A stretch of DNA of 64,000 nt from assembly GCF_003334385.1 (NCBI RefSeq), contig NZ_QOWN01000008.1, one strand, 5' to 3'. Below, piece by piece: positions 6,480-59,539 of this stretch; positions within the stretch are counted from its first letter, which is position 1; each line of letters starts with the position of its first letter. Made by a program: the position numbers and the translations under genes. The notes beneath the pieces were generated by a model, which was given only the letters and a program-made list of their open reading frames with translations, searched no databases and was not told the DNA's origin. This DNA is from Escherichia coli (GTDB lineage: Bacteria; Pseudomonadota; Gammaproteobacteria; Enterobacterales; Enterobacteriaceae).

Positions 6480-6690
<211 letters not shown>

Positions 6691-16227: not shown

Positions 16228-17127
16228 ATGACCGAATCAACAACCTCCTCCCCGCATGATGCGGTATTTAAAACCTTTATGTTCACACCCGAAACCGCAC
16301 GGGATTTTCTCGAAATACATTTACCAGAACCACTGCGCAAGCTTTGCAACCTGCAAACCTTACGCCTGGAACCCACTAGTTTTATTGAAAAAAGTTTACG
16401 CGCTTACTACTCGGATGTTTTGTGGTCCGTGGAAACCAGCGACGGTGACGGCTATATCTACTGCGTGATTGAACATCAAAGCTCTGCAGAAAAGAATATG
16501 GCTTTTCGGCTAATGCGCTATGCCACTGCCGCCATGGAGCGTCACCTGGACAAAGGCTATGACAGAGTCCCGCTGGTGGTGCCGTTGCTGTTTTATCATG
16601 GCGAAACCTCGCCTTACCCGTACTCACTCAACTGGCTGGATGAGTTTGACGATCCGCAACTTGCCCGGCAGTTGTACACCGAAGCTTTTCCGTTGGTGGA
16701 TATCACCATCGTACCTGACGATGAGATCATGCAACATCGGCGTATAGCTCTGCTGGAACTGATTCAAAAGCATATTCGCGACCGCGATTTAATCGGCATG
16801 GTCGACAGGATCACCACGCTTTTGGTTAGAGGCTTCACTAATGACAGCCAGCTACAAACACTGTTTAATTATCTGCTGCAATGCGGCGATACCTCCCGTT
16901 TCACCCGTTTTATTGAGGAGATTGCCGAACGTTCACCACTACAAAAGGAGAGATTAATGACTATTGCTGAACGGCTACGGCAGGAAGGGCATCAAATTGG
17001 CTGGCAGGAAGGTATGCATGAACAAGCCATTAAAATTGCTTTGCGCATGCTGGAGCAGGGCTTTGAACGTGAGATTGTGCTGGCGACAACCCAACTCACT
17101 GATGCTGATATTCCGAACTGTCATTAA
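16228..17127 (+). CDS. yfaD: Rpn-family (YhgA-like, PD-(D/E)xK) recombination-promoting nuclease RpnB/YfaD (299 aa)
   Basis: ORF 16228..17127; translation [36 protein letters not shown]... matches recalled YfaD. Confidence 0.9.
16957..17127 (+). CDS. Putative intragenic small protein (56 aa) translated in-frame from an internal SD+ATG within yfaD/rpnB (RpnS-like C-terminal module)
   Basis: Internal aaaaggagagattaATG at 16943-16959 gives a strong SD spaced 7 nt before an in-frame ATG; the same SD+ATG+coding block is duplicated downstream as ypaA. Reports of intragenic small proteins in Rpn genes are recalled from literature, not verified here. Confidence 0.5.
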
Positions 17128-17139
17128 AAGGAGAGATTA

Positions 17140-17325
17140 ATGACTATTGCTGAACGGCTGCGGCAGGAAGGACATCAAATTGGCTGGCAGGAAGGTAAAT
17201 TAGAAGGTTTGCATGAACAAGCCATTAAAATTGCTTTGCGCATGCTGGAACAGGGCTTTGATCGTGACCAGGTGCTCGCGGCCACCCAGCTAAGCGAAGC
17301 CGATCTGGCAGCGAATAACCACTAA
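17140..17325 (+). CDS. ypaA: YpaA (61 aa), stand-alone paralogue of the C-terminal domain of YfaD/RpnB
   Basis: ORF 17140..17325, [61 protein letters not shown]; retains the same SD (aaaaggagag) as the internal yfaD start. Confidence 0.7.
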   Translation: MTIAERLRQEGHQIGWQEGKLEGLHEQAIKIALRMLEQGFDRDQVLAATQLSEADLAANNH

Positions 17326-17333
17326 TTAACACA

Positions 17334-17361
17334 GGCCCACAGCCGATCCCCATGGGCCTTT
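17334..17361 (+). terminator. Hairpin (ggccca...tgggcc) followed by TTT, between convergent ypaA and rhmA
   Basis: Inverted repeat ggcccacagccgatccccatgggcc followed by tttgat, directly after the ypaA stop. Confidence 0.45.
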
Positions 17362-59487: not shown

Positions 59488-59539
59488 TAGCATGCTTCCA
59501 GTTTTCTCAGTCAGAGACTGAGCGTTAATCGAAATTCGG

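Follow-up and report, generated by a model that had tools for sequence, protein, structure and literature searches.

Antitoxins nested within the gene of their own toxin have their founding example in the Rpn genes. For RpnA, RpnB, RpnC and RpnP2, a small protein (RpnS) has been found to block the toxicity or growth inhibition, the SOS induction and the DNA cleavage caused by its own long protein (RpnL), with neutralisation running via an L2S2 complex (Zhong et al. 2023; PMC10400941). RpnS proteins act on their own RpnL only, and partner specificity is decided by how many four-residue repeats helix 1 contains, a number that differs among strains; in the case of RpnC, neutralisation is lost when RpnC-S or RpnC-L alone has one extra unit, but not when both do (PMC10400941). 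The TAEL repeats of EcoR124I/EcoR124II HsdS (cited in PMC10400941) likewise change specificity through the number of four-residue repeats in a helix, although these repeats space DNA half-sites, whereas those of Rpn proteins set the pairing of toxin and antitoxin proteins. An internal transcription start has been noted for all rpn genes, and anti-phage defence has been demonstrated solely for the plasmid-borne RpnP2 (PMC10400941).

RpnA (YhgA), with its products RpnA-L and RpnA-S (PMC10400941; crystal structure 7TH0), resembles RpnE in its PF04754 domain, in identically numbered catalytic residues, in an internal start at Met244, and in the opening and three-helix fold of the small protein. 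Among the differences, RpnA-S lacks extra four-residue units and rpnA lacks a downstream free-standing copy of the small-protein module. Moreover, toxicity, neutralisation, complex formation and cleavage have been measured for RpnA (PMC10400941), whereas RpnE was inactive on overexpression (Kingston et al. 2017). The architecture of rpnE-ypaA recurs in some E. coli strains as rpnC with a downstream rpnC-Ss (PMC10400941, Fig. 2I), which arose independently, from RpnC, according to the phylogeny in that paper. Free-standing RpnS-like genes with DUF4351 (PF14261) in other species (PMC10400941) also encode a small S-type protein as a gene of its own, as ypaA does, although YpaA has no PF14261 match and is covered by PF27070 (HTH_Rpn_C). 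Such downstream copies of the S module can vanish by deletion or by N-terminal-domain fusion (PMC10400941).

The rpnE-ypaA pair is itself a published case in which the inner gene has also been copied out. Meydan et al. (2019; bioRxiv 10.1101/520783) found Ribo-RET peaks at internal starts lying in frame within each of the five rpn genes, together with raised synonymous-site conservation around the internal start of yfaD, and already pointed out the likeness of the internal RpnE product to the independent gene ypaA. Zhong et al. (2023; PMC10400941) reported Onc112/retapamulin signal for rpnE-ypaA in MG1655, detected SPA-tagged RpnE-S and YpaA in that strain and renamed YpaA RpnE-Ss. The arrangement and its reading as an internal start are therefore already known from these two papers. 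The main text of Zhong et al. describes no mutant making RpnE-L only, no rescue by RpnE-S or YpaA and no phage phenotype of RpnE. What we add is a count of the two-copy form across complete E. coli genomes, the polarity of the two tails, the mosaic divergence between the copies, and the repeat numbers of ten haplotypes.

Identity of the locus and its nuclease domain

The window analysed here is a 64-kb stretch of E. coli DNA (64,000 nucleotides) in which a long and a short open reading frame lie in tandem, flanked on one side by glpC and on the other by the convergent yfaU. In RefSeq records the long gene is named rpnE, and its short neighbour appears as a hypothetical protein or as an Rpn/YhgA-type helix-turn-helix domain-containing protein. 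The long protein scored 697 bits against the NCBIfam equivalog NF007418 (cut-off 583 bits) and 173 bits against TIGR01784. All six residues that Kingston et al. (2017) mutated in RpnA (D11, D63, E82, Q84, R94 and D165, the last of them in the PDDE motif) are kept in RpnE at RpnA numbering. The neighbouring glpC, yfaU and yfaV are metabolic and not defence genes, and no PADLOC v2 model matched either RpnE or YpaA.

An earlier note on this DNA, made from its sequence alone, had called yfaD rpnB. By RefSeq and by the naming of Kingston et al. (2017), yfaD is rpnE and rpnB is yfcI, so that we discarded this label. The correction has practical weight: since each RpnS acts solely on its own RpnL, tests conducted with RpnB would address the wrong protein. 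The note had also referred to a proposal that Rpn nucleases are toxic and are restrained by small proteins from within their own genes. This stands for RpnA, RpnB, RpnC and RpnP2 (PMC10400941) but not for RpnE as it behaved on overexpression, being the only K-12 Rpn protein without toxicity, SOS induction or a recombination phenotype (Kingston et al. 2017).

The overexpression construct used for RpnE by Kingston et al. (2017) still had the internal start and so encoded RpnE-S.

Tandem duplication of the internal module

A gapless repeat finder aligned positions 16943-17014 with 17126-17197 at 97% identity over 72 nt (spacing 183), and positions 17008-17109 with 17203-17304 at 84% identity over 102 nt (spacing 195). 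The rise in spacing from 183 to 195 is due to an extra 12 nt in copy 2, AAATTAGAAGGT, encoding KLEG. Both copies start with AAAAGGAGAGATTAATG, which places AAGGAG 6 nt upstream of each ATG. The 64 kb contain exactly two occurrences of their 34-nt opening, AAAAGGAGAGATTAATGACTATTGCTGAACGGCT, one at 16943 and the other at 17126, and this opening matched nowhere in 100 dinucleotide-preserving shuffles even with three mismatches allowed. Tandem Repeats Finder did not report a two-copy array in the window, and the evidence for the repeat therefore rests on the gapless repeat finder, on MAFFT, which also showed the array, and on the shuffle test of the opening sequence. The coordinates of all features are collected in Table 1.

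Table 1. Features of the rpnE-ypaA locus, in window coordinates (aa, residues of RpnE-L)
Feature	Position	Strand	Basis or remark
RpnE-L, 299-aa ORF = rpnE (yfaD)	16228..17127	+	ORF list; RefSeq gene name rpnE; NF007418; PF04754
Nuclease domain, PD-(D/E)XK / Transposase_31	aa 8-209		PF04754, E=1.2e-87
C-terminal three-helix module of RpnE-L	aa 244-299		
Copy 1 of the 183-nt tandem unit	16943..17125	+	
Copy 2 of the tandem unit, 198 nt	17126..17323	+	183 nt + 12-nt tetrad + one extra codon
Shine-Dalgarno AAGGAG, internal start of rpnE	16945..16950	+	6 nt 5' of ATG 16957
rpnE-S, internal ORF, in frame from Met244, 56 aa	16957..17127	+	Antitoxin/dimerisation module by homology
Four-residue repeat region of RpnE-S	16978..17013	+	Zero extra units in this strain
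Shine-Dalgarno AAGGAG of ypaA	17128..17133	+	Overlaps rpnE stop region (TAAAAGGAG)
ypaA = RpnE-Ss of Zhong et al., 61 aa	17140..17325	+	Free-standing S-module copy
Extra unit KLEG (AAATTAGAAGGT) of ypaA relative to rpnE-S	17197..17208	+	Inside predicted helix 1, residues 3-37
In-gene tail of rpnE	17063..17124	+	35% nucleotide difference from ypaA tail; two-copy E. coli loci only
ypaA tail (DRDQVLAATQLSEADLAANNH)	17258..17322	+	Type common to single-copy E. coli alleles and other Escherichia species
G+C-rich hairpin between convergent ypaA and yfaU	17333..17359	.	Scored on minus strand; likely shared terminator

The ATG at 16957 lies in the frame of rpnE, at an offset of 729 nt or 243 codons. 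Copy 2 starts within the rpnE stop codon, and the ATG of ypaA shares the rpnE frame, being separated from it by TAA and four codons. The short gene is thus a separate ORF with its own Shine-Dalgarno sequence and ATG, lies immediately 3' of rpnE and is closest to RpnE's own S module, which is how free-standing RpnSs genes are recognised. Positions 16930-17340 of the window are 100% identical to an MG1655 derivative, and the published MG1655 data therefore apply to exactly this sequence.

The earlier note had described most of this arrangement correctly. The direct repeat of some 183 bp from the end of yfaD, the strong ribosome-binding site and ATG that open each copy, the in-frame internal ATG predicting a 56-aa C-terminal product, and the four-codon KLEG insertion in copy 2 were all recovered at exact coordinates. 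Its suggestion that the C-terminal module might be made as a separate protein agrees with the Ribo-RET, Onc112/retapamulin and SPA-tag data for MG1655 (10.1101/520783; PMC10400941), and its view of ypaA as a free-standing extra copy of the module is borne out by the repeat alignment and by the published designation RpnE-Ss (PMC10400941).

The small proteins RpnE-S and YpaA

RpnE-S and YpaA align with 46 of 56 residues identical (82%, where Meydan et al. (10.1101/520783) give 98%), with one four-residue and one single-residue insertion. The copies show nine synonymous and ten non-synonymous codon differences, almost all of them in the last 20 codons, and nine of the last 20 residues of YpaA differ from those of RpnE-S.

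Against NF007418, YpaA scored 108 bits over model positions 244-308, as compared with 28.6 bits against the RpnA model. Precomputed annotation assigns PF27070 (HTH_Rpn_C) both to the RpnE C-terminus and to YpaA. Our own Pfam-A scan of YpaA, in a profile set that did not include PF27070, gave only noise, and PF14261 did not match at E up to 10. By sequence, YpaA matches the RpnA-S crystal structure 7TH0 (E=3.4e-4), with a 12-residue gap in the alignment right at the position of the four-residue units. In an AlphaFold model of YpaA (12-sequence alignment, pLDDT 79), one long helix (residues 3-37) precedes two short ones (42-49 and 53-58). The best PDB match of this model in Foldseek was again 7TH0 (probability 1.00, TM 0.74 on the target), with an E-value of just 0.015 for these very short chains.

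Distribution and repeat-number variation in E. coli

The locus was found in 5421 of 5426 complete E. coli genomes. A query spanning the junction of the rpnE stop and the ypaA start matched 3132 of the 5426 (58%), at one place each; the remaining ~42% have a single-copy or disrupted locus. We rejected chance or an assembly artefact as the source of the duplication on the strength of these counts.

Among the fetched E. coli loci, RpnE-S ranges from 56 to 88 aa and YpaA from 57 to 81 aa, in whole 12-nt steps after WQEG, which corresponds to 0-8 extra four-residue units at the helix-1 site in rpnE and 0-6 in ypaA. The units at the RpnE-S repeat site of other E. coli genomes are of the types KLEG/KIEG/WQEG/LQKG..., and one locus (L006) has a period-24 array. 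Both ORFs are open in all intact loci despite these frequent 12-nt changes; rpnE is frameshifted in one locus (L002) and broken by IS2 in another (L016). Moreover, AAAAGGAGAGATT(A/G)ATG is kept in both copies in all the loci examined from E. coli and other Escherichia species.

Ten haplotypes, written as extra units in RpnE-S and in YpaA, were (0,1), which is that of the window and of K-12, and (8,1), (1,4), (8,4), (5,1), (3,1), (5,0), (6,2), (5,2) and (8,6). The two numbers are unequal in all ten, which is not statistically significant, as random pairing of the observed values gives a chance of a match of ~0.06 per haplotype and P ~0.5 of finding none in ten. A systematic mismatch in repeat number between the copies is accordingly not claimed, since random pairing yields zero matches about half the time.

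Mosaic divergence and the polarity of the two tails

The copies are mosaic: identity is ~96% over the 5' two-thirds and falls to 65% over the final third. They differ at 2 of 57 nt in the first 19 codons and at 2 of 48 nt in the 16 codons after the repeats, as against 22 of 63 nt (35%) in the last 21-22 codons.

The earlier note had taken the C-terminus of copy 2 to be the diverged one, a polarity that comparison with other loci reverses. The comparison with strains lacking the duplication that it had called for showed every single-copy E. coli allele among the fetched loci to end in a tail of the ypaA type. One of these (L005) is a collapsed K-12 haplotype, in which the head and the first tail codon of copy 1 are joined to the tail of copy 2; a further single-copy allele (L018) has a hybrid tail, and the single-copy allele of O157:H7 type resembles the allele of another Escherichia species. 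A degenerate DNA pattern for a 13-residue protein motif matched at a single site in each of E. albertii, E. whittamii, two other Escherichia species, one E. coli representative and two Citrobacter species. The locus is single-copy in the four other Escherichia species, with an ..ADLAANNH-like end and, after it, the hairpin that is also present in the window; in single-copy species (L017-L022) this hairpin stands directly 3' of the rpnE stop. The ypaA tail differs from that of E. albertii at 13 of 66 nt and from that of E. whittamii at 12 of 66, both below its distance to the in-gene tail. On these sequence comparisons, the ypaA tail is the genus-wide type, adjoining a conserved likely terminator, and the in-gene tail is the odd one.

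No second place resembling the in-gene tail was found in E. coli genomes by megablast and blastn, which returned one place per genome, and tblastn found no plasmid donor, its matches lying only in records of 0.37 to 4.9 Mb that are evidently chromosomal. The in-gene tail may derive from an imported old allele, from an ancient duplication followed by gene conversion of the 5' part, or from rapid selection on helix 3. We had considered the single copy as the proven ancestral state, a view that we softened in light of the fact that collapse of a two-copy locus always leaves a ypaA-type tail. Because recombinational collapse always keeps the downstream tail, the single-copy outgroups are compatible with either history.

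Proposed mechanism

The anatomy and homology of the locus, the translation of both small proteins and their repeat variation have been observed here or in the literature. We consider it highly probable that the locus is the E. coli rpnE (yfaD)-ypaA member of the Rpn gene-within-a-gene toxin-antitoxin family, with the module, duplication and pairing that this entails. On this account, RpnE-L would be a PD-(D/E)XK nuclease of 299 aa whose last 56 residues are predicted to form a three-helix module, and the internal Shine-Dalgarno sequence and ATG at Met244 also yield the same module as a separate protein, RpnE-S. By homology with RpnA, RpnB, RpnC and RpnP2, RpnE-S would use its long first helix to pair with its identical counterpart in RpnE-L and would hold the nuclease inactive; which partner fits would depend, again by homology, on how many four-residue repeats the helix has.

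The ypaA gene is a head-to-tail duplicate of the 183-nt module, Shine-Dalgarno sequence and ATG included. It is presumably co-transcribed with rpnE or rpnE-S and translated from its own Shine-Dalgarno sequence, possibly by re-initiation at the overlapping stop of rpnE. Since the duplicated segment starts just 14 nt before the ATG, it brings no promoter of its own to ypaA, nor did a consensus scan detect a sigma-70 promoter within rpnE. By analogy with the other family members, we infer that RpnE-L may be toxic and neutralised by RpnE-S or YpaA. Cross-neutralisation of RpnE by YpaA is doubtful, because YpaA exceeds RpnE-S by one unit and the two proteins differ in helix 3.

Possible roles of YpaA

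YpaA could serve the RpnE-L of the same strain as a cognate but redundant second dose of antitoxin. It has the first 19 residues of RpnE-S and its helix 2, within the 46 of 56 identical residues, and an identical Shine-Dalgarno sequence and ATG; moreover, the protein has been detected in MG1655 (PMC10400941) and 3132 of 5426 genomes retain both copies. We hold this role to be possible but somewhat doubtful, in that the YpaA of the window is one unit longer than RpnE-S, a difference which in RpnC abolished neutralisation in both directions (PMC10400941), unit numbers differ between the copies in ten of ten sampled haplotypes, and 35% of nucleotides are different across helix 3 and the C-terminus. 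Alternatively, YpaA would be a deliberately mismatched S module and not a brake on the adjacent RpnE-L, acting as a spare specificity cassette that could be recombined into rpnE, or directed as antitoxin or decoy at another Rpn variant or at a phage factor. This is the sole reading with some novelty, and it seems to us unlikely. It would be in keeping with equal unit numbers in none of the ten haplotypes, with the recombinant single-copy alleles (the copy 1 head and copy 2 tail of L005, and the hybrid tail of L018), and with the contrast between ~96% identity in the 5' two-thirds and 65% in the 3' third, as expected with frequent gene conversion. Against this, the lack of equal pairs is not significant (P ~0.5 under random pairing), collapse to a single copy is a loss and not a switch, and no allele with the two tails in swapped positions was seen among the fetched loci. 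From the sequence comparisons, we hypothesize with equally little confidence that YpaA keeps a genus-type tail and always differs in repeat number from RpnE-S, while gene conversion and unequal crossing-over between the copies would make new RpnE pairing specificities, or YpaA would guard against another Rpn variant or a phage mimic.

A quite improbable alternative to any role in restraint is that the locus is functionally inert in this lineage, with RpnE needing no restraint and the duplicate being a neutral, translated by-product of repeat-driven instability. The lack of a phenotype from RpnE overexpression (Kingston et al. 2017) would fit such a state, as would the rpnE frameshift and the IS2 insertion in single loci and the absence of the second copy from ~42% of genomes. 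This sits poorly, however, with the intact catalytic residues of RpnE, with the perfect conservation of the Shine-Dalgarno sequence and ATG in both copies and across Escherichia species, and with the enhanced synonymous-site conservation at the yfaD internal start (Meydan et al., 10.1101/520783). Moreover, no intact locus has lost either open frame, frequent though the 12-nt changes are.

Junction and similarity of the two modules

At the junction between rpnE and ypaA (window 17125-17142), the two genes lie in a single reading frame and are separated only by the TAA stop codon and four sense codons (KERL). One change in the rpnE stop codon, or read-through of it, would yield an RpnE protein carrying two tandem S modules. 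The internal product of RpnE has been described as 98% identical to YpaA (Meydan et al., bioRxiv 10.1101/520783). In the window, where the relevant stretch (16957-17325) is identical to MG1655, we find that RpnE-S and YpaA share 46 of 56 aligned residues (82%), in addition to one insertion of four residues and another of a single residue.

Database annotation

Calls of ypaA by PGAP are inconsistent across RefSeq records (rpnE loci L003, L004, L006, L012-L015, and L059-L071 from other genomes; window 17128-17325). The gene is annotated in some genomes as an intact CDS of 61 or 73 aa, and in many others as a pseudogene ('incomplete; missing N-terminus') whose start is drawn at the first base past the rpnE stop, because ypaA shares the frame of rpnE. 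The product name given to rpnE itself in RefSeq records is 'ISNCY family transposase', although Rpn proteins have been argued not to be conventional transposases (Zhong et al., PMC10400941). Rfam matches across the whole window are limited to two RNA families, both of which are unrelated to the rpnE-ypaA finding.

Rfam matches in the window
Feature	Position	Strand	Score (bits)
naRNA4	6531-6601	-	76
nuoG RNA motif	59495-59537	-	50

Variant and disrupted loci

The single-copy rpnE of E. coli SCPM-O-B-8794 (L018), the GTDB representative, has a hybrid tail (22 residues) in which helix 3 is of the in-gene type and the C-terminus of the ypaA type. Either it arose by recombination inside the divergent third, or it represents an intermediate stage in evolution. 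In L016 (NZ_CP157104.1, 2230-4468), rpnE is split downstream of the nuclease domain by an IS2 element, leaving an orphan 57-aa S module with its SD and ATG intact. Strain BS-01 (L002; NZ_CP172816.1, 829-1742) carries a frameshift in rpnE, despite which its two S modules are both intact and the same as those of the window. One further locus, in GCA_016586755.1, occurs at both ends of a single 5.19-Mb contig (L057 and L058) with differently broken rpnE calls, which probably reflects an untrimmed circular overlap together with sequencing errors.

Beside rpnE, a set of single-copy strains (L007, L016, and search matches H18-H22 and H26-H27) has a yfaU lacking its N-terminus, annotated as 'aldolase/citrate lyase family protein', and directly followed by yfaY. 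A deletion therefore took out part of the adjacent rhamnonate cluster in these strains.
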